In this document: piece by piece, positions 1,871-34,621 of the stretch
How positions within the stretch are numbered: position 1 is the stretch's first letter
Layout of the letters: the number at the start of each line of letters is the position of its first letter
Source of the DNA: Giardia intestinalis
Lineage: Eukaryota
Reading direction: 5' to 3' (one strand)
DNA: 64,000 nt
Assembly (NCBI GenBank): GCA_000002435.2
Contig: CM018791.1
The notes under the pieces: model-generated
Database searches by the model: none
What the model saw: only the letters and a program-made list of their open reading frames with translations
What the model was told of the DNA's origin: nothing
Program-made: the position numbers and the translations under genes

Positions 1871-4540
1871 CTACGAGACATCGCACAGACAGATGCTATT
1901 TTCCGCTATTGGCTCGGCGTATTCCATTACCTCAGACTCTATATATACCGCAAATGGTATTTTCAGGGAGCCTTCATCGATGGGTAAATCGTAGTCTGCG
2001 CCATTAGGTTCTACATCATAGCTTAAGTCCTTAATATAGTACGGAGGCATTGGTAGTGGTTGTTGACAAGTTGATGATAAGTTGTCCAGGGGAGCGGGGG
2101 CAGCAAGGGGCTCCTCCGCGCTCTCCTCGCACTCCGGGGTGGCGGCCCTCTGGTAGCTCTCGTCCTTCGCCGGGTCCAGGGGAGCGGGGGCAGCAAGGGG
2201 CTCCTCCGCGCTCTCCTCGCACTCCGGGGTGGCGGCCCTCTGGTAGCTCTCGTCCTTCGCCGGGTCCAGGGGAGCGGGGGCAGCAAGGGGCTCCTCCGCG
2301 CTCTCCTCGCACTCCGGGGTGGCGGCCCTCTGGTAGCTCTCGTCCTTCGCCGGGTCCAGGGGAGCGGGGGCAGCAAGGGGCTCCTCCGCGCTCTCCTCGC
2401 ACTCCGGGGTGGCGGCCCTCTGGTAGCTCTCGTCCTTCGCCGGGTCCAGGGGAGCGGGGGCAGCAAGGGGCTCCTCCGCGCTCTCCTCGCACTCCGGGGT
2501 GGCGGCCCTCTGGTAGCTATCTTCGCAGTATTTTGCAGCTAAGACAGAAGGCTCATCTCTGACCTGTTCAACTGTAGTAACAGTTTCTATAACCTCATAG
2601 CGGTTATAAATGTATTTATCATCAGTCTTTTCAGAAGGTGTTCCAGCCTGTCCTTCTGCTTCATACAAATCTCCCTCAGTAATAGGCGTTGGTTCCACCT
2701 TTGATGTAGCAGGCATGTGGTATGTGGTGTTTAATACTTGTCCATTCTCATCATAAATGGCTTTATCGCTAGCATTACTGTTCATCAATTCTGCTTCTTC
2801 TTCTCTTGAAATAATCTTTTTAAGAGGCATCGGCAAACTGCTTTCCCTGGTGGTCACTGGCTCTTCCTCACGCGCGAATAGAACAGGCTTTGTATTCGGT
2901 CGAGTATTAGTGGAATATCCAACTATACTCTTAGAAACATAGTTGGGTTCAATAATCGGATGTATGCTCTTGTCTGAATCTCCACAATAAAATTCTGGCA
3001 AGGGCTGGCAATAGGATTTGAAGCATGTCATAGAGCGTTTTTGGGTCATGCTGTCCCGATCATCTACCTGGTACGCTTCCCAGTCATCAGATGTAGGATA
3101 GACAGGCACTATCACCAAAGTTTTTCGTTGCTCGTTGACAAACTTTAAAATAGTGCCAAAGTCCAAAAGAGTGTCTTGCTCTGCTGTTATGGCATCCAAC
3201 AGCTGCTGAGGAGTCAGAAGAGGGACGGGAAGATCAGTAATATTAGTGTAACAGCCCTTTAGAGCATGAAGATGGGCATCCCAGCAGATTGGCAAATCAT
3301 CTCCAGCAAACACGGCATCAGCTTGTAACCCCAAAAGAAAGTAAAGGGATACGTCCTCATCGGACAAAGAGGACGTACGTGCTACACTGCTACATACCAG
3401 GTCACTGTCTAGAGGGCCTTGATCAACTCCATTCCGTGGGTGCTTCTGGTCGTACAGATCAAACAAGTCGCCAGTCTCATCACAGTTTATACATTGATCA
3501 TAGAAGATGTTAACAACTTCTTGTATCTCCGGAAGAGTCATCTCAGGCATAAACTTGAGAATCGCAAACACAAGTGCCGTTGTTTCCCGTGTATAGAAGC
3601 ACTCTTGTTTTAGATACATAAACCACGAATCCTCTGCCTTGTCTGATATTTTGATATTCGGGAGGCAGACAGGCTTGTCACAAAGAAACCTGCACGCGTT
3701 GGCAAGAGATGATAACTGAATGGTCAGCACTTTAAACTTAGTAAGAAGCTCAGTCAAGGCCTTTCTGCTGCCTTTCCCCGAACTCAGAAGAGCAGCCGTC
3801 TCATTCTTACAGATAATCCGCTCTTGAAGTAGCGTCCTAAAGAGTTTGCGGTATTCTAAAAGCGTATGCATCCTCTTTTGATACTCAACCGTGAGCGTAG
3901 AGCTTCTGTTGAGCTGAGAATACGCATAATCACGCTCTGAATAGGGGATTTCAAGAGCCTCCCACATACGAGTGAGTGATGCAACAGCATTGTGCGCCCT
4001 CAGAGCCATGGATGCCCCTTGGCCCGTCCTTGGCAAGAATTGGTTCCCACTTCGGGAGACAAGAGAGGTAGAGCCCCGATCCTTTGTCATGAACTTCTCT
4101 GACTTGTTGAGATTGTCTGTATCGTTATAGTATCGTGTCTGTGGGGAACAAATGCGTTCCAAATAAGGAGAATATTCCACCTGCTGCTCGGTAACAGACG
4201 CTTTTGGACTCCCGTGGCCATGCTTTGTAGATTTACGATAAGATTTGATGTCTGTATTTGGAGACTTTTGTAGTGGGCGGGTAATGGAGCGTGAGCGGAC
4301 ATTTGCCATGGTTGCCCCTTCTAGGTGCTTGCTCTGAATGCGGAGCATCTCTGCTTGCGACACACCTCGCTCCGTAGTCTTGGCCATCTCGACAATCCGG
4401 GCATTGTTCGGATTTGAAAAGAATGCCTTGAGGTGGGGGTCGCTTTCTGCATGGTATGACGGTGGTCTGTCACCAATTCTAGTGGTAAACTCTGGCTGCA
4501 ATCTTTCGCGTCGCGGTGCGCGGTGGTCAACAAAGCTCAT
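1871..4540 (-). CDS. Member A of a window-local paralogous family (uncharacterised conserved ~350-aa core), with five C-terminal 30-aa acidic/Pro-rich repeats.
   Basis: 889-aa ORF with a true ATG at 4540. Shared motifs with 26227-27714, 31739-34621 and 34606-36525: WEALEIPYSERDYAY, SSGKGSRKALTELLTKFKVLTIQLSSLANACRFLCDKPV, FLLGLQADAVFAGDDLPICWDAHLH, LPVPLLTPQQLLDAI, LVIVPVYP. Confidence 0.65.
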   Translation of the reverse strand: MSFVDHRAPRRERLQPEFTTRIGDRPPSYHAESDPHLKAFFSNPNNARIVEMAKTTERGVSQAEMLRIQSKHLEGATMANVRSRSITRPLQKSPNTDIKSYRKSTKHGHGSPKASVTEQQVEYSPYLERICSPQTRYYNDTDNLNKSEKFMTKDRGSTSLVSRSGNQFLPRTGQGASMALRAHNAVASLTRMWEALEIPYSERDYAYSQLNRSSTLTVEYQKRMHTLLEYRKLFRTLLQERIICKNETAALLSSGKGSRKALTELLTKFKVLTIQLSSLANACRFLCDKPVCLPNIKISDKAEDSWFMYLKQECFYTRETTALVFAILKFMPEMTLPEIQEVVNIFYDQCINCDETGDLFDLYDQKHPRNGVDQGPLDSDLVCSSVARTSSLSDEDVSLYFLLGLQADAVFAGDDLPICWDAHLHALKGCYTNITDLPVPLLTPQQLLDAITAEQDTLLDFGTILKFVNEQRKTLVIVPVYPTSDDWEAYQVDDRDSMTQKRSMTCFKSYCQPLPEFYCGDSDKSIHPIIEPNYVSKSIVGYSTNTRPNTKPVLFAREEEPVTTRESSLPMPLKKIISREEEAELMNSNASDKAIYDENGQVLNTTYHMPATSKVEPTPITEGDLYEAEGQAGTPSEKTDDKYIYNRYEVIETVTTVEQVRDEPSVLAAKYCEDSYQRAATPECEESAEEPLAAPAPLDPAKDESYQRAATPECEESAEEPLAAPAPLDPAKDESYQRAATPECEESAEEPLAAPAPLDPAKDESYQRAATPECEESAEEPLAAPAPLDPAKDESYQRAATPECEESAEEPLAAPAPLDNLSSTCQQPLPMPPYYIKDLSYDVEPNGADYDLPIDEGSLKIPFAVYIESEVMEYAEPIAENSICLCDVS
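2086..2517. repeat. Perfect tandem repeat, 90 bp x about 4.8 copies, in-frame inside CDS 1871..4540. It encodes ESYQRAATPECEESAEEPLAAPAPLDPAKD x5.
   Basis: CCAGG unit starts at 2086, 2176, 2266, 2356 and 2446. The copies are identical at the nucleotide level and diverge only at 2518. Confidence 0.95.
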
Positions 4541-5331: not shown

Positions 5332-6057
5332 TCAAGGATAGTCACCCGACTCGAGCGTGGTCACGCCTTCGTGAGCTATTTGTCGGGCACGGACCATGTC
5401 TACGCTCTCCGGCTGAGACGTCATGACAAGGAGCATGTCGGGATATTTGCGGACACAACTAAAGAGATCCTTGCAGGTATCTTCGTCCGCTATAACGGCG
5501 AAGTGAAGAGAGGTGTTTCCATTGATGCAGTAACGTGACAAATCTCTATGTAGATCGTCCAGGAGCTTATGCATACAGTACCCCAAATCAGTATACTTCC
5601 CTGATCGCTGGAGCCTAAGGTCCCGAGATGGTACCCAAACAGCGATGGCTAACTTCGCAGCGGATGGCTCTAGGCAACGGTAGAGATATGCGAGGACCAC
5701 TTCAAATGCTGTAGAGACCGTGGATAAAGCTCGCAGCGCCCTACAAAGCTCTGGTTTGTTCAATGCATGCTTGAAATCAGAAATCTTTCCTTCTTTTCCC
5801 TGGCAGCAATTGCAGCTTTTGTAAACGCCTATGGCATCATCAGTTATGCTTGCACTGTAGAAAACATCGCTCCGGCAGGAGATGCACTTAGCCAATTCAG
5901 GAACCATAGAAAGCATAAGCGGAGAGAAGGTGTACATAAGGTCGATGACGGTTTCTGCCTCTACAGTCTCTCCAACATAGACAGAGAGGTGCCAGGGCTC
6001 AGTGATCTTCCTGAGAAAAGCGTCGGAAGCCACCTCAGGTGCGTTGTCCCCCGACAT
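5332..6057 (-). CDS. Hypothetical Cys-containing protein (CISCRSD...KSCNCC), lying immediately downstream of the CenH3-like gene on the same strand.
   Basis: 241-aa ORF. The ATG is at 6057 (the track start 6060 is a TTG). No recognisable domain. Confidence 0.35.
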   Translation of the reverse strand: MSGDNAPEVASDAFLRKITEPWHLSVYVGETVEAETVIDLMYTFSPLMLSMVPELAKCISCRSDVFYSASITDDAIGVYKSCNCCQGKEGKISDFKHALNKPELCRALRALSTVSTAFEVVLAYLYRCLEPSAAKLAIAVWVPSRDLRLQRSGKYTDLGYCMHKLLDDLHRDLSRYCINGNTSLHFAVIADEDTCKDLFSCVRKYPDMLLVMTSQPESVDMVRARQIAHEGVTTLESGDYP

Positions 6058-6108
6058 CAATCGTTCAAATTTACAGGTCGAGTCAAAAGGTGGCAGAGGG
6101 GTGAGCAG

Positions 6109-6588
6109 CTACAGCATACTTCCATGAATGCCGTTCATCCATGGAGGACGCACTATTCTCATGTATATCTGTATATCTTTATCCATGATCGTGACGCGGT
6201 GGGCGTGGTTTGCCAGTATTTGGCAGTCTCCAAGCACCTGGGAAAGCATGGCTTCGGATGCTTCCTGCAATGCGCCGATTGCCTGGGCTTGGAAGCGAAT
6301 TTCGTTTCCTCCTGAGGGAAGTGAACACGTTATGTCACGTACAAGGCGTTGAAAGCAGGCGATGGGGATGACGCTAGTGACTCTGCGCTGCATGTTAGTG
6401 ATCTCTTTGCGAACCTGGGAGCCGGGTCGGGCACGTCTGGTGACGGCCTTTTCAGATTTCGATATAGCCTTGCGTGCGACGGTCTTCTTGGAAAGAATCG
6501 TCTTTCGAGGTGCATGTTGTCCTTTGCGTGCTGTATTGACGTGCACGCTCTTGCTGCGGTCCATAGCTGTGTTTTTGGTGCGAGCCAT
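6109..6588 (-). CDS. Divergent histone H3 variant, probably the centromeric histone CenH3.
   Basis: MARTK N-terminus. The histone fold [10 protein letters not shown]...[12 protein letters not shown]...[49 protein letters not shown] aligns with canonical H3 (RPGTVALREI...LPFQRLVREI...[49 protein letters not shown]). It has a longer, divergent N-tail and a 3-aa insertion in loop 1 ([12 protein letters not shown]), both CenH3 hallmarks. ATG at 6588. Confidence 0.7.
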   Translation of the reverse strand: [159 protein letters not shown]

Positions 6589-7078
6589 ATTTTTAAACCT
6601 TGATCATCCTAGGATGGTTAGTGTAACGTCTTGCTGATAGGGTATTCAGTGAAAATGGTGAAAGTAGATAGCAATCTTGCTTGTTCAGAGAAGATTGTGT
6701 TGAACTGTGGCCTAAGTAAGGGATGGACACGCCCTAGGAGGAAAAACAGCAGCTTTGGAAATTCTAAAATACCAAGGGAATCCTTTTCCATCGCAGGGCA
6801 GTAAGATTCTCTTCCTGTCGATCAGCAACGGATACACAAAGAGCGCAGAAGAATGGATTGATAGGAGTCGCCAGATTGTCTTAGCAAGCAGCTTTTGAGA
6901 AGCACTCAATGTAAATCATATGTTCAAAAAAGCAAATTAATTCCGCTTCTGATTTCATATAAATTTCAAGTCCACTGGCCTCTCCTGAGGCAGATGATGA
7001 CTTTGCGACGGGCGGACGGAGGGACGCGTGACGAAGTTTGTCGTATTCTGAATTCCTTCATTTAAAATTGGGCTTAAA

Positions 7079-7679: not shown

Positions 7680-8996
7680 TTATGAATAGGAGCATGCAAG
7701 GCAAACGGTGTCATACCCTCCTCCCTTTAGGATTTTTGCACACCCACTACCAAACTGAGCTGCCTGTTTAGGTCGGGCGACCAACTCTGGTGGGACTCCC
7801 AATAGCCAGGCAGCATCCCTTAATATCTTTTTATTTCTGAGATACTCATATCTCTCTGACTCCATCAGATAGTTGAAGAAGGCAGCGACCATCGGCTCTA
7901 GGTACGGGTAAACTACTCGGGAGAATACCCCAGAATCCCTAGTGATATTCCTCTCAAATAGGTTTTGGCAGGCATGCTTGACTGAGAGTTTCCACGTGCA
8001 CGTGTCACCGTCCCGTAATGCTGCATACGCACCGCAATACTCGTCCGGGCCCAATCCGGACATGACAGGAACGTCGATCTCTGACCCATCGGCCCTCCTC
8101 GTCGAGTGAAATAGTATTGATCCTAAGTTTAGCATCATCACAGTTGGCGGGCAGGGGGCTATTAAGTCCCTTACTTGCTGTAGACTGCTTCTAAACTTTA
8201 CTTCAGGGATTGACATGCTCGTGATTTTTATGCGATCCGGACATGACTCGACAATCCTCTGTAGCCGCGGAGAGTCACATAGGGACCTAAATGCAACTGC
8301 ATCCTTAGCAAATTCAAAAAAGTTTATATTAAAAAGTTCTATTCTAGATTGACTTTTTTCTAAAATATGAGTTGCACAAATATATACTAGTAAGGTGGAG
8401 TCGATGCCGCCAGAAGCCAGTATACGGATCTCGGGATGTCTGCTCAGCTGATTAGATATGAGCTCCTTTAGAATTTCTAGGAACTTCATTACAAGGTTAT
8501 CACTGGGCTCAAAGTGCATCTCCATGGCTTGTGATAAGGACGGAACAACTTCAGTAAATGGTATGTACTTTTCTAGCGAAAGGTAGTGCTCAGTGCTCGT
8601 TAACACACTAAAGAATGTGTGCCCTGGAAGGATAAAAGCCAAATCCTTGAGCCCCACACATTTCTCTCGAAGATATATCCCAGATTTATTGTAACAGAGG
8701 ACTACTCTGGAATGATGGTCAGTCATAACTTCTATTCTTTGTTTCTCTCTGTCTAAAATGAGTATAAACATGGAAATACGTTCTACATTATATATAGGTT
8801 CATGACCAGGGCACAGTAGCATCTGCAGAGTCGGACTATCCGGTGCCTGTGCGAAAGTGGATATGCACTCACATCCAGCATAAGGCCCGACTGTAAGTGT
8901 ATGTGTGAATAATGTGAACGAGAGATTGTCAGCAATTTCAACAAGAAACTTTGGCTGAGCTTCCGGCGCGATTGGGGCCGCAAGGGTCACACTCAT
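7680..8996 (-). CDS. PP-loop ATP pyrophosphatase family protein (asparagine-synthase-like C-terminal domain). No glutamine amidotransferase domain is evident.
   Basis: The SGGxDS PP-loop motif is present (ILASGGIDSTLLVY) at about aa 190 of 438. ATG at 8996. Confidence 0.45.
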   Translation of the reverse strand: MSVTLAAPIAPEAQPKFLVEIADNLSFTLFTHTLTVGPYAGCECISTFAQAPDSPTLQMLLCPGHEPIYNVERISMFILILDREKQRIEVMTDHHSRVVLCYNKSGIYLREKCVGLKDLAFILPGHTFFSVLTSTEHYLSLEKYIPFTEVVPSLSQAMEMHFEPSDNLVMKFLEILKELISNQLSRHPEIRILASGGIDSTLLVYICATHILEKSQSRIELFNINFFEFAKDAVAFRSLCDSPRLQRIVESCPDRIKITSMSIPEVKFRSSLQQVRDLIAPCPPTVMMLNLGSILFHSTRRADGSEIDVPVMSGLGPDEYCGAYAALRDGDTCTWKLSVKHACQNLFERNITRDSGVFSRVVYPYLEPMVAAFFNYLMESERYEYLRNKKILRDAAWLLGVPPELVARPKQAAQFGSGCAKILKGGGYDTVCLACSYS

Positions 8997-9962: not shown

Positions 9963-9969
9963 AGTAAAC
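9963..9969 (+). promoter_or_regulatory. Polyadenylation signal AGTAAAC (Giardia consensus AGTRAAY) for the RING gene, 9 nt after its stop. It is the first of four 11-bp tandem copies (9962..10003).
   Basis: Read directly: TAG gccgccag AGTAAAC g. Confidence 0.6.
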
Positions 9970-10003
9970 GATGAGTGAACGGTGAGTAAACAGAGAGTAA
10001 ACG

Positions 10004-31738: not shown

Positions 31739-34621
31739 CTACAAGAAGGTCTTCGACGGGCTCCGCGGGCTCTGCAAGGCGTGCCTCCTCGGGCTCCTCA
31801 ACGGGCGCTTCAGGTTCTTCGACGGGCTCCGCGGGTCTGCAAGGCGTGCCTCCTCGGGCTCCTCAACGGGCGCTTCAGGTTCTTCGACGGGCTCCGCGGG
31901 GTCTGCAAGGCGTGCCTCCTCGGGCTCCTCAACGGGCGCTTCAGGTTCTTCGACGGGCTCCGCGGGCTCTGCAAGGCGTGCCTCCTCGGGCTCCTCAACG
32001 GGCGCTTCAGGTTCTTCGACGGGCTCCGCGGGGTCTGCAAGGCGTGCCTCCTCGGGCTCCTCAACGGGCGCTTCAGGTTCTTCGACGGGCGCCTCTTGCT
32101 GCTCGGGCTGTTTCTTTGCAGGAAGAGAAGAGTAACTCTTACTAGCAGTAAGCTGCTGTAAACCAACAGACTCAGGTTCCTTTCTACTTCGAGATTGTAA
32201 TAGCGGGGTCCCATCTGGTCGAGTAAAATCTGTTAGAGGAGTACTACATGGTTCGTCCAAGATGTCTTCGCGAATCCTAGATAAAAGGATGATATTATCA
32301 CAGACGTGCTCGTCGTCAACTTCATATACTTGAAAGTGTTTGGCTGTACTAGAATCCTCATAGTCTGTAGAGTCTAGACAGGCGTATCGCCCAGTACTAC
32401 TACTTCGTACTTGTGAAGTAGTGATCCTATCAAAATGACTAGAAGTGATCACCACACATGGAATGTATTCATCGTTGATATTAACTTGACTCTCAGGATG
32501 CTCGTTGTGTAGTAGATCAATTTCCCTTAGCAAGGATCCACCTGTCGAAAGAATATTTCTGGGTGAAGATATAGTTACAATAGTTGCGCTCATTACATCG
32601 TCTCGAGAGGCGATTTCCGTGGCAGTTGACGGCGGAAGCAACGTACACTCACTTATTTTGGGAATAAGGGCAGTAGCAGGAGAAATAATATTTAGATCTT
32701 TAGCATTGGTCGAGGAGCTTGGGGGCTGCGCAGTAAACTCAGCATATGGGTCCTCTGATGGTATGTCCAAACCTCCACTACTAGCTGCAAATGAAGGACC
32801 AACCACTTCTGGTTCAATAATATCTGGATCCTCATGATAACTTTGTTCATCATAGGTGCTTAAATTCTGAGTTGATGATATGGATGAGTGAGCTAGTGCT
32901 TGCATCTCTAGCGACTCCTCGTCCTTTGGAGGAGAAAGATTAACTATGGGAGCATCTTCGCGTAGATCATTGCCATCCATCTCAATAGTTGGTAGATCGG
33001 CTATCACTTCAGGTTGCGATGCAATCACAGCGGGAGATATTGACCCCGATGGCTCAAGCTGCACCTCGTGCTCATCAGGTTGTGGAAGTATAATATCCAG
33101 CGACGCCTTTAATGGTGGTAGAATAGTGGGCGCGCCTGATGAACCACTTAACGGTCTACTAGAGACATGAGTTGAAAGATGCTCATTAGATGCAAAATTC
33201 GCCTGTTCAGATTGACAAGCTTCGTTAGATACAGATGCATCTAAAGAAGAACGGTGGTCATCATCGGTAGAGCGTTCAATGTGAGCAATAGCAGAAGACT
33301 GTCTATGAGGAACAACACTTTCATCATCACCATCCGTTAGACGTCGTAGCAAGACTATTTTATTTGACCCTTCATCCTCCTGCGTAAAGATCCTGTCATA
33401 AACATCCAACGTATCCGAAGCTGAGAGCGGAGGAACAGCAACAATCCCACAATCACTTTTGTTTGCCTGCCTCATAAGATCGGTTAATTGGTTAATGGTT
33501 GTTCGCTCGACTGCAAATGCTGTGAACACTTCCTCTGGAGTCAGCTCCAGACAAGGAAGAGGAGCCTTGCCCATAGATGGCCCCCGCACCTGCTCTAAGT
33601 GTTCTACCCATCGCACCCCTAAATCATCTCCCTCAAAAGCAAACGTCATTGGAGGAGCAACCCCCAGTAGAAGAGCCAAGGATGCAAAATCATTGATAGG
33701 CGAGGCTGTGTCTACACCAGGGAGCATAACACATGCAGCTGGGGTATGAATGTTGTCATTTTGGTTTGAAAATTCTTCGTCTTTGACGCTATCCCACATA
33801 CCGTAGAAGGAAGATAACAGGGCTTTATGGTCAGATAAAGCTTGACTCTTGCTATACTTTAAAACAGTAAACATAACTGCAAAATCGACTTGATTGAAAC
33901 CTCTTTTCTTCATCCTCACGATGTAGTTTGGAGACTTCTGGGAAAATCCTGTTCTGAGAGGATTAAATGAAACTGGCTTTTCACAGATTACTCGTGATGC
34001 ATTGACGACAGAAACTATGGAAATTATAGATGACCGAAGAAGGAGGAGATCGTTTGCAAGGGACTTCCTGCTCCCCTTTCCTCCTTTCAAAGCGCTTTCA
34101 ATATTGCCAAAGGCGCTCTCATATTCCTGAATGCTTGTCAGGTATGCTTCTCTGAGATCTAAAAGAGCTTTTAACTTATTTATGTAGGTGGGGATCTCAG
34201 CCCTGTTTGCATCCAGTCGCTCATAAGCAAGATTGCGCTCTTCAATGCATACATCGAGGCTGTCCCACAGTGGTATAATATCTGTAAGAATATTCTTAGC
34301 CGTCTCAGTACGTCGCAACGGTGCTGGATTGTATGTGCGCGCAGTCTTGTAAGAAACGTCTTTTCTCGGCTTGTGCATTTGTTTTCTTGAGAGATCCGCG
34401 CTCATAAGCAAAGGATTTGCTTGCAAGTAGGGACTCTTGTAGGTGAACTTAGTGCCAGTCTGGGCAGACATGGCAGATGTATTAGTGACCAGACGCCCGC
34501 CAGAGGTAGGTCCACTATCACGACGAGACGTTCTCATTGCGTCAGTTTTTGGTGTGGATGATCGTAACACTGCCTGAGGTCTTGATCGGCCTCCAGTCCT
34601 CATAGATGAATCCGGAAACAT
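31739..34621 (-). CDS. Member C of the paralogous family, with C-terminal 22-aa acidic repeats (EPEAPVEEPEEARLADPAEPVE). The reading frame is disrupted inside the repeat array.
   Basis: Motifs WDSLDVCIEERNLAYERL, LKGGKGSRKSLANDLLLLRSSIISIVSVVNASRVICEKPV, LLLGVAPPMTFAFEGDDLGVRWVEHLE, VAVPPL. The track start 34702 is a GTG. Candidate ATGs are at 34621 and 34603. The tail ...ADPRSPSKNLKRPLRSPRRHALQSPRSPSKTFL* is the repeat read in the wrong frame after a 1-bp deletion. Confidence 0.6.
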   Translation of the reverse strand: MFPDSSMRTGGRSRPQAVLRSSTPKTDAMRTSRRDSGPTSGGRLVTNTSAMSAQTGTKFTYKSPYLQANPLLMSADLSRKQMHKPRKDVSYKTARTYNPAPLRRTETAKNILTDIIPLWDSLDVCIEERNLAYERLDANRAEIPTYINKLKALLDLREAYLTSIQEYESAFGNIESALKGGKGSRKSLANDLLLLRSSIISIVSVVNASRVICEKPVSFNPLRTGFSQKSPNYIVRMKKRGFNQVDFAVMFTVLKYSKSQALSDHKALLSSFYGMWDSVKDEEFSNQNDNIHTPAACVMLPGVDTASPINDFASLALLLGVAPPMTFAFEGDDLGVRWVEHLEQVRGPSMGKAPLPCLELTPEEVFTAFAVERTTINQLTDLMRQANKSDCGIVAVPPLSASDTLDVYDRIFTQEDEGSNKIVLLRRLTDGDDESVVPHRQSSAIAHIERSTDDDHRSSLDASVSNEACQSEQANFASNEHLSTHVSSRPLSGSSGAPTILPPLKASLDIILPQPDEHEVQLEPSGSISPAVIASQPEVIADLPTIEMDGNDLREDAPIVNLSPPKDEESLEMQALAHSSISSTQNLSTYDEQSYHEDPDIIEPEVVGPSFAASSGGLDIPSEDPYAEFTAQPPSSSTNAKDLNIISPATALIPKISECTLLPPSTATEIASRDDVMSATIVTISSPRNILSTGGSLLREIDLLHNEHPESQVNINDEYIPCVVITSSHFDRITTSQVRSSSTGRYACLDSTDYEDSSTAKHFQVYEVDDEHVCDNIILLSRIREDILDEPCSTPLTDFTRPDGTPLLQSRSRKEPESVGLQQLTASKSYSSLPAKKQPEQQEAPVEEPEAPVEEPEEARLADPAEPVEEPEAPVEEPEEARLAEPAEPVEEPEAPVEEPEEARLADPAEPVEEPEAPVEEPEEARLADPRSPSKNLKRPLRSPRRHALQSPRSPSKTFL
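31751..32079. repeat. Tandem repeat, 66 bp x 5 copies, inside CDS 31739..34621. Copy 2 (31817..31881) is 65 bp because it has GGGT instead of GGGGT/GGGCT.
   Basis: Unit CTTCGACGGGCTCCGCGGG[G/C]TCTGCAAGGCGTGCCTCCTCGGGCTCCTCAACGGGCGCTTCAGGTT. Copies at 31751, 31817, 31882, 31948 and 32014. Confidence 0.95.

Follow-up and report, generated by a model that had tools for sequence, protein, structure and literature searches.

The open reading frame (ORF) at positions 6109-6588, minus strand, of the 64-kb Giardia intestinalis stretch analysed here (the window, numbered from its first letter) is the known and annotated histone H3B gene GL50803_3367, and the gene for the centromeric variant, cenH3, is a different one located elsewhere in the genome. 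An earlier note, made on this DNA from its letters, had narrowed the ORF to one of two variants, H3B or CenH3, and this part stands, as the published H3B primers match the locus exactly; its headline of a CenH3 candidate does not, the cenH3 primers being absent from the window. The match to H3B is the very outcome that the note had set in advance against its own proposal. With the integration of the identity, structure, constraint and regulation of this gene, we consider it very probable that H3B is a lineage-specific, non-centromeric replacement H3 variant, with an expression separate from that of the core histones.

The frame is intact and comprises 159 codons, 480 nt including the stop (477 coding nt), with the start ATG at 6588-6586 and the stop TAG at 6111-6109:

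6109-6588, minus strand: complete, intronless H3B coding sequence (GL50803_3367; XP_001704171.1), documented by the ORF list, Pfam, the WB protein match, the primers and the ratio of nonsynonymous to synonymous substitution (dN/dS)

Its product is unmistakably an H3-family histone. Residues 18-145 match Pfam PF00125 (Histone) with E=8.8e-35, and the best 60 matches among sequences of solved structures, obtained with HMMER, were H3 chains throughout (E ~1e-19 to 1e-20). The identity of the protein amounts to 47% with human H3.3, 41.5% with canonical Giardia H3 and 34% with CENP-A, in agreement with the divergent H3 histone that the note had recognized at this place. No second H3-like gene was found in the 64-kb window by tblastn with Giardia H3, human H3.3 and CENP-A as queries.

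The encoded protein is 100% identical to XP_001704171.1 (KAE8302709.1; UniProt A8BYH2), annotated as 'histone H3' of Giardia intestinalis ATCC 50803 WB clone C6; this exact match identifies the window as the Giardia reference genome, and the organism had thus been named correctly. The Giardia H3 set includes canonical H3, in two copies, and the variants H3B and cenH3 (PMC8421212, PMC11738946, PMC8011197), with pairwise identities of 33-46% among the three proteins (PMC8011197). The gene list of a diplomonad tagging paper gives cenH3 as GL50803_20037 with 470 bp, H3 as GL50803_135231 with 440 bp, and H3B as GL50803_3367 with 479 bp (PMC6429047). Canonical H3 has 146 codons, which its listed 440 bp exceeds by 2; by the same count, the 479 bp corresponds to 159 codons and the 470 bp to 156; the 159 codons of the window ORF therefore fit the length of H3B and not that of cenH3. 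The cloning primers Giardia.HistoneH3B-F and -R for GL50803_3367 (Table S1, PMC6429047), the first of which served for cloning this gene under its own promoter (PMC6429047), each have one exact site here:

6811-6834, minus strand: single, exact site of Giardia.HistoneH3B-F (gene-specific part), 223 bp upstream of the ATG
6112-6135, plus strand: single, exact site of Giardia.HistoneH3B-R, spanning the final 8 codons of the ORF

Furthermore, the adjacent upstream gene is GL50803_003370, whose ORF number is close to 3367. The primer matches, the gene length, the tag of this neighbour and the fact that the ORF is the sole H3-like gene in the window together establish that it is H3B; protein, primers and length all agree with G. 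intestinalis H3B (GL50803_3367; XP_001704171.1), and no difference was found.

The same evidence bears on the alternative that the ORF encodes the CenH3 of Giardia, that is, the histone replacing H3 in centromeric nucleosomes and recruiting the kinetochore. Two independent papers assign cenH3 to GL50803_20037, at 470 bp in the first (PMC6429047) and as a 471-bp glcenh3 fragment in the second (PMC8011197), lengths that differ from the 477 coding nt of the ORF. The forward primer of the second paper encodes MSGGSR... (PMC8011197), and the reverse primers of both read a C-terminus ...QRNLNSLR (PMC6429047, PMC8011197), whereas the window ORF has the termini MARTKN...IHGSML. Neither the cenH3 primers of the first paper nor the forward cenH3 primer of the second matched anywhere in the window, even at 2-3 mismatches. 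CenH3 is thus ruled out as the identity of the gene by the primer matches and the gene lengths. No cenH3 protein emerged when the metagenome collection was scanned for exact matches to the cenH3 reverse-primer sequence, and none was among the 120 best word-indexed matches or the 150 best representatives of an exhaustive HMMER search. In a 2026 localisation atlas, cenH3 (GL50803_0020037) displays a punctate nuclear signal of centromere type (PMC13322205), and H3, H3B and cenH3 tagged with green fluorescent protein have all been reported as nuclear (PMC8011197, citing Dawson 2007). Taken side by side, H3B and cenH3 are two divergent members of the H3 family in one organism, and each localizes to the nucleus when tagged; they differ in locus, in length (159 and 156 amino acids, respectively) and in termini, and H3B keeps an H3-like tail. 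In 2007, Dawson, Sagolla and Cande reportedly described H3B and the centromeric cenH3 as two H3 variants.

The features that had suggested a centromeric histone reside in the protein itself, which is organized as follows:

6421-6588, minus strand: N-terminal tail, residues 1-56, H3-like (MARTK, TARK, APRK, ARKA), from the HMMER alignment to H3.3, tblastn, alignment A1 and the positions of modifiable lysines
6535-6567, minus strand: tail insertion, about residues 8-18, which separates the K4-type from the K9-type motif and makes up most of the additional length of the tail (alignment A1)
6151-6363, minus strand: histone fold, residues 76-146, from the AlphaFold2 model and Foldseek
6298-6327, minus strand: loop 1 region, residues 88-97, with three residues more than human H3 and one more than canonical Giardia H3
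6112-6150, minus strand: C-terminal extension, residues 147-159, in place of the typical RGERA end and holding the RPxW motif (alignment A1, motif scan)

The glycine of the RPG motif is found at position 56 in H3B, at 45 in human H3 and at 46 in canonical Giardia H3, the H3B tail being about 11 residues longer than that of human H3 and 10 longer than that of canonical Giardia H3; the long tail had been noticed from the letters, and so had the insertion of three residues in loop 1 relative to human H3 (DF---KTDLRF), on which HMMER and MAFFT agree. The tail starts with MARTKNTA and keeps equivalents of K4, K9, K18, K23 and K27 (in TARKG, APRKT and ARKA contexts), while those of K36 and K79 are missing and that of K14 is also lost in G. 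intestinalis. Its insertion is shared with the G. muris orthologue P0008 (AIDRMKSGTPP) and is shorter or absent in other H3B-like sequences. By tblastn, residues 1-131 of human H3.3 align to the translated ORF (E=6.8e-23), whereas CENP-A aligns by its fold only, over residues 49-132 (E=7.9e-14). The AlphaFold2 model, built from alignment A2 with 22 relatives, places helices alphaN at residues 57-68, alpha1 at 76-89, alpha2 at 101-128 and alpha3 at 136-146, with a predicted local distance difference test (pLDDT) score of 88-96 in the alpha2/alpha3 core; a further short helix at 151-157, in the C-terminal extension, is a low-confidence prediction. All of the best 50 PDB matches of this model in Foldseek are nucleosomal H3 chains, and the residues equivalent to His113, Asp123 and Ile130, which belong to the H3-H3' interface or fold of typical H3, are retained.

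An (R/E)-P-x-(W/Y) extension after alpha3 occurs as EPEY in canonical Giardia H3 (PDB 7D69), as RPSW in the Dysnectes protein P0083 and as RPPW in H3B; judging from these sequences, it seems to be a trait of fornicate H3 rather than an invention of H3B.

In favour of CenH3 stand the longer tail and a loop 1 that exceeds that of human H3 by three residues, as compared with two in CENP-A, as well as a divergent fold in which the replacement of T107 by C and of C110 by L resembles CENP-A, and weak Pfam matches to CENP-T_C and CENP-S. The latter were rejected as centromere evidence, since they are cross-matches of a generic kind between histone folds and one falls short of its gathering threshold. 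As for loop 1, canonical Giardia H3, whose sequence we confirmed as PDB 7D69 chain A, is reported to carry a Giardia-specific insertion of two residues (PMC8421212), which falls in loop 1 in our alignment; relative to human H3, this loop is longer by three residues in H3B, by two in canonical Giardia H3 and by only one in the G. muris orthologue of H3B, where it is shorter than that of canonical Giardia H3. The earlier premise that a long tail and a loop-1 insertion distinguish centromeric H3 accordingly fails in Giardia, where the canonical protein has the insertion and H3B (159 amino acids) is longer than cenH3 (156 amino acids).

The comparison of the CENP-A targeting domain (CATD), which the note had offered as a check for CenH3, gave no support to that assignment: over the equivalent region (loop 1 and alpha2), H3B displays 47% identity to H3.3, 40% to human CENP-A (a sequence verified against PDB) and 37.5% to canonical Giardia H3, and is thus nearer to H3.3 than to human CENP-A. 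In the same region, the identity rises to 59% with the H3B-type protein of G. muris and to 56% with that of a Spironucleus-like organism. Nor is the tail unrelated to H3, as it would be in a CenH3, since it can be aligned with H3.3 from residue 1. CenH3s are often recognized by changes at the H3 positions Q68, F84 and T107, following Malik and Henikoff-type analyses. H3B keeps Q68 and F84 and has C at T107, so that the combined signature is not found in it, whereas CENP-A has S at Q68 and W at F84. This signature is unreliable in the lineage, since the Q68 position is occupied by Ser even in canonical Giardia H3. In sum, CENP-A and H3B have in common the histone fold, a loop 1 longer than that of human H3, a small residue for T107 and Leu for C110, and differ at Q68, at F84 and in the CENP-A tail, which bears no relation to that of H3. 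The long tail, the longer loop 1 and the Q68/T107 signature yield false CenH3 positives in diplomonads, in which canonical H3, too, has an insertion in loop 1 and no Q68. Rapid evolution is typical of the tails and the loop 1 of CenH3s. By contrast, loop 1 of H3B is invariant across assemblages A, B and E, and the low dN/dS of the gene (0.03-0.09) as well as an mRNA level comparable to that of canonical H3 (PMC3096902) also speak against a centromeric histone. Taken together, we regard the CenH3 reading as extremely improbable.

The conservation of H3B was examined in four Giardia lineages, namely assemblages A, B and E and the P0007 lineage. In all of them, the reading frame of 159 amino acids is intact, and dN/dS is 0.03-0.09 at dS values of 0.4-1.4; H3B is under strong purifying selection and is a tightly constrained histone. 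This result bears on a further alternative, in which the ORF would be a decaying or functionless, pseudogene-like duplicate of canonical H3 that has diverged by drift. An identity of merely 41.5% to canonical Giardia H3, together with the loss of the K14, K36 and K79 equivalents in G. intestinalis, would fit such a history; the intact frame in four lineages, the low dN/dS at dS up to 1.4 and the conservation of fold-critical residues do not. Neither do the syntenic orthologue in G. muris and the related H3B-type proteins of diplomonad-like organisms described below, nor the conserved promoter and poly(A) elements and the transcription of the gene in trophozoites and cysts (PMC3096902), and we give this alternative almost no credence.

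Database searches returned H3B-like relatives of 132-161 amino acids, which share the RPxW motif after alpha3, DKD or EKD in loop 2 and, at the end of alpha2, the pattern (L/M)xDxQxLAxHA:

G. muris 'histone H3' A0A4Z1SY43 (P0008): 54% identity to H3B
Spironucleus vortens A7Y0D9 (P0057): 45% identity to H3B
H3B-like proteins from metagenomes and assemblies of Sequence Read Archive data: P0026, P0027, P0056, P0069, P0134, P0135 and P0137

The H3B-type proteins of other diplomonads resemble H3B in the RPxW end, the DKD/EKD loop 2, the alpha2 end and an ARTK-type tail, with identities of 44-54%, and differ from it in that loop 1 is longer than that of human H3 by none or one residue in most of them and, outside Giardia, the insertion in the tail is reduced or missing. 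In a neighbour-joining tree (Kimura distances, 500 bootstraps), the H3B-type sequences were separated, with 85% bootstrap support, from a set consisting of canonical Giardia H3, Dysnectes, Carpediemonas, human H3.3 and CENP-A. In addition, the gene order Myotubularin-related / CAF1 / Asn-synthase-like / H3B is common to G. intestinalis and G. muris, which makes G. muris A0A4Z1SY43 the positional orthologue of H3B.

A gene of S. salmonicida has also been named H3B, with a primer-encoded end AWALSMK (PMC6429047). P0056 was considered as this gene (SS50377_17654) and rejected, as the primer DNA found no match in the P0056 contigs even at 3 mismatches; the two agree in length (146 amino acids) and in the C-terminal WALSMK only, and P0056 is a close relative but not that gene.

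On the G. muris chromosome CM016925.1, the block formed by the Asn-synthase-like gene, the H3B orthologue and a gene for a protein with an RNA recognition motif (RRM) is present in two copies about 94 kb apart, at 2,040,252-2,052,737 (L001) and 2,134,658-2,147,143 (L002), and the outer flanks of the two differ, an arrangement that points to segmental duplication of the H3B locus.

The regulation of H3B was approached through its flanking sequences. All core histone genes of Giardia carry a 15-bp motif named him, which is essential for the H4 promoter (PMC1872034), has the form G[G/A]GCGCATGATTTNGG and lies within ~50 bp upstream of the ATG (PMC1872034). No him motif was found near H3B within 3 mismatches, and the few matches elsewhere in the window were at chance level. 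A weak him-like ATGAT..GG at -25 to -10 was discarded, with mismatches at 7 of its 16 positions and no conservation in assemblage B. Instead, the gene is flanked by conserved elements of its own:

6589-6599, minus strand: AT-rich initiator-like element GGTTTAAAAAT, abutting the ATG (sequence and flank conservation)
6618-6626, minus strand: upstream motif TTACACTAA, candidate promoter element, at -38 to -30 (four-lineage conservation)
6653-6661, minus strand: TCAYCATTT, candidate promoter element, at -73 to -65, conserved in four Giardia lineages
6069-6075, minus strand: poly(A)-signal-like heptamer TGTAAAT, 33 nt past the stop (pattern scan; conserved in four lineages)

The TTTAAAAAT part of the initiator-like element is identical across the four Giardia lineages. 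In Giardia histone genes, transcription begins at AAA triplets located 1-27 nt before the ATG (PMC1872034). The TTACACTAA motif is identical in assemblages A, B and E and in the P0007 lineage despite a dS of ~1, and both this motif and TCAYCATTT are conserved although synonymous sites are near saturation, and are distinct from him. Downstream of the gene, TGTAAAT sits inside a conserved block, CTGTAAATTTGAA; the corresponding signals of two Giardia H2a genes are TGTAAAC and TGTGAAC (Table 1, PMC1872034). The mRNA of GL50803_3367 is present in trophozoites and cysts, with a microarray signal of the same order as that of canonical H3 (PMC3096902). From the absence of him and the conserved flanking elements, H3B seems to be an intronless, polyadenylated gene under a regulation of its own. 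H3B and canonical Giardia H3 (GL50803_135231, GL50803_14212; PDB 7D69 chain A) are alike in their fold, lengthened loop 1, post-alpha3 extension and intronless genes, but canonical H3 is 63% identical to human H3.3, as against 47% for H3B, and its genes have him, whereas that of H3B does not.

As a replacement variant, H3B would pair with H4 and, in a fraction of the nucleosomes across both nuclei, take the place of canonical H3. Its tail might bear a partly different set of modifications, in which K4-, K9- and K27-type marks would be possible while the equivalents of K36 and K79 are gone, and the differences in alphaN, in loop 1 and in the C-terminal extension may alter the contacts with DNA ends or within the tetramer, or the recognition by chaperones. 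Several points weigh against this reading. The residues C at T107 and L at C110, the QAQA that opens alpha2 and the longer loop 1 are CenH3-like; the comparison with cenH3 was made through length and primer-encoded termini; we infer the incorporation of H3B into nucleosomes, its pairing with H4 and the modification of its tail; and its non-centromeric status is likewise taken from its name, from secondary reports that say 'nuclear' and no more, and from what Dawson et al. (2007) reportedly state.

A different distribution is also conceivable, in which H3B would be a variant associated with heterochromatin or pericentromeres, beside cenH3 chromatin, rather than generally distributed. Special chromatin is marked by divergent H3 variants of individual lineages, trypanosome H3V being an example, and this analogy favours the proposal, as does the retention of K9- and K27-type motifs alongside the loss of the K36 and K79 equivalents; Dawson et al. 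(2007) are also said to have raised the possibility that H3B marks non-centromeric heterochromatin. On the other hand, a transcript level of the same order as that of canonical H3 suggests wide and not focal use, and no feature of the sequence points to a particular type of chromatin; we consider a heterochromatic role possible, though unlikely. With regard to the analogy itself, H3V resembles H3B conceptually, as a divergent, non-centromeric H3 paralogue of a parasitic protist, with no orthology implied. H3V acts at telomeres and transcription termination regions, roles that are not transferable to H3B. The two have been given as naming analogues, with an informal letter suffix (PMC3380720).

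A more far-reaching proposal, which we hold to be speculative and rather improbable, is that H3B belongs to an old lineage of H3 paralogues, defined by RPxW, the DKD loop 2 and the loss of K36 and K79, that pre-dates the split between Giardia and Spironucleus-like organisms, and that it marks a specific chromatin state (e.g., silent vsp or repeat chromatin, or chromatin flanking cenH3) by way of a deposition pathway of its own. If this were true, diplomonads would have a third functionally distinct class of H3. As the annotation and the name of H3B date back to 2007, the value of the present analysis is mainly corrective; in addition, the selection on the gene, its synteny in G. muris, the H3B-type relatives and the him-less promoter support the view of H3B as a genuine variant under independent regulation.

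In the vicinity of H3B, the ORF that had been described 51 bp downstream on the same strand was confirmed: it occupies 5332-6057, minus strand, has its ATG at 6057, 51 bp past the H3B stop, and encodes 241 amino acids. The product is the Giardia-only hypothetical protein GL50803_0013330, in which no Pfam family was recognized. This gene is found in assemblages A, B and E and is missing from this position in G. muris, where H3B is followed in its place by the RRM gene, on the opposite strand. The upstream neighbour, kept in both G. intestinalis and G. muris, encodes a protein of 438 amino acids (7680-8996, minus strand) annotated as 'putative asparagine synthase', with a weak and partial match to Pfam Asn_synthase (E=1.2e-07, residues 173-335).

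Elsewhere in the window, a perfect tandem repeat with a 90-bp unit (4.8 copies, 100% matches) extends over 2084-2518, within the ORF at 1871-4540, minus strand, and encodes a repeat of 30 amino acids (…DESYQRAATPECEESAEEPLAAPAPLDPAK…) of the hypothetical protein GL50803_0016230. This protein has 889 amino acids in WB and 799 or 769 in other isolates or assemblies, and this difference in length probably reflects variation in the number of repeat copies. A second tandem repeat of coding type, with a 66-bp unit (5.2 copies, 98% matches), lies at 31750-32095. Finally, four poly(A)-signal-like heptamers (AGTAAAC, AGTGAAC, AGTAAAC and AGTAAAC) are arranged with a regular spacing of 11 bp at 9963-10002, plus strand, directly preceding ATGAAAAATT at ~10005.

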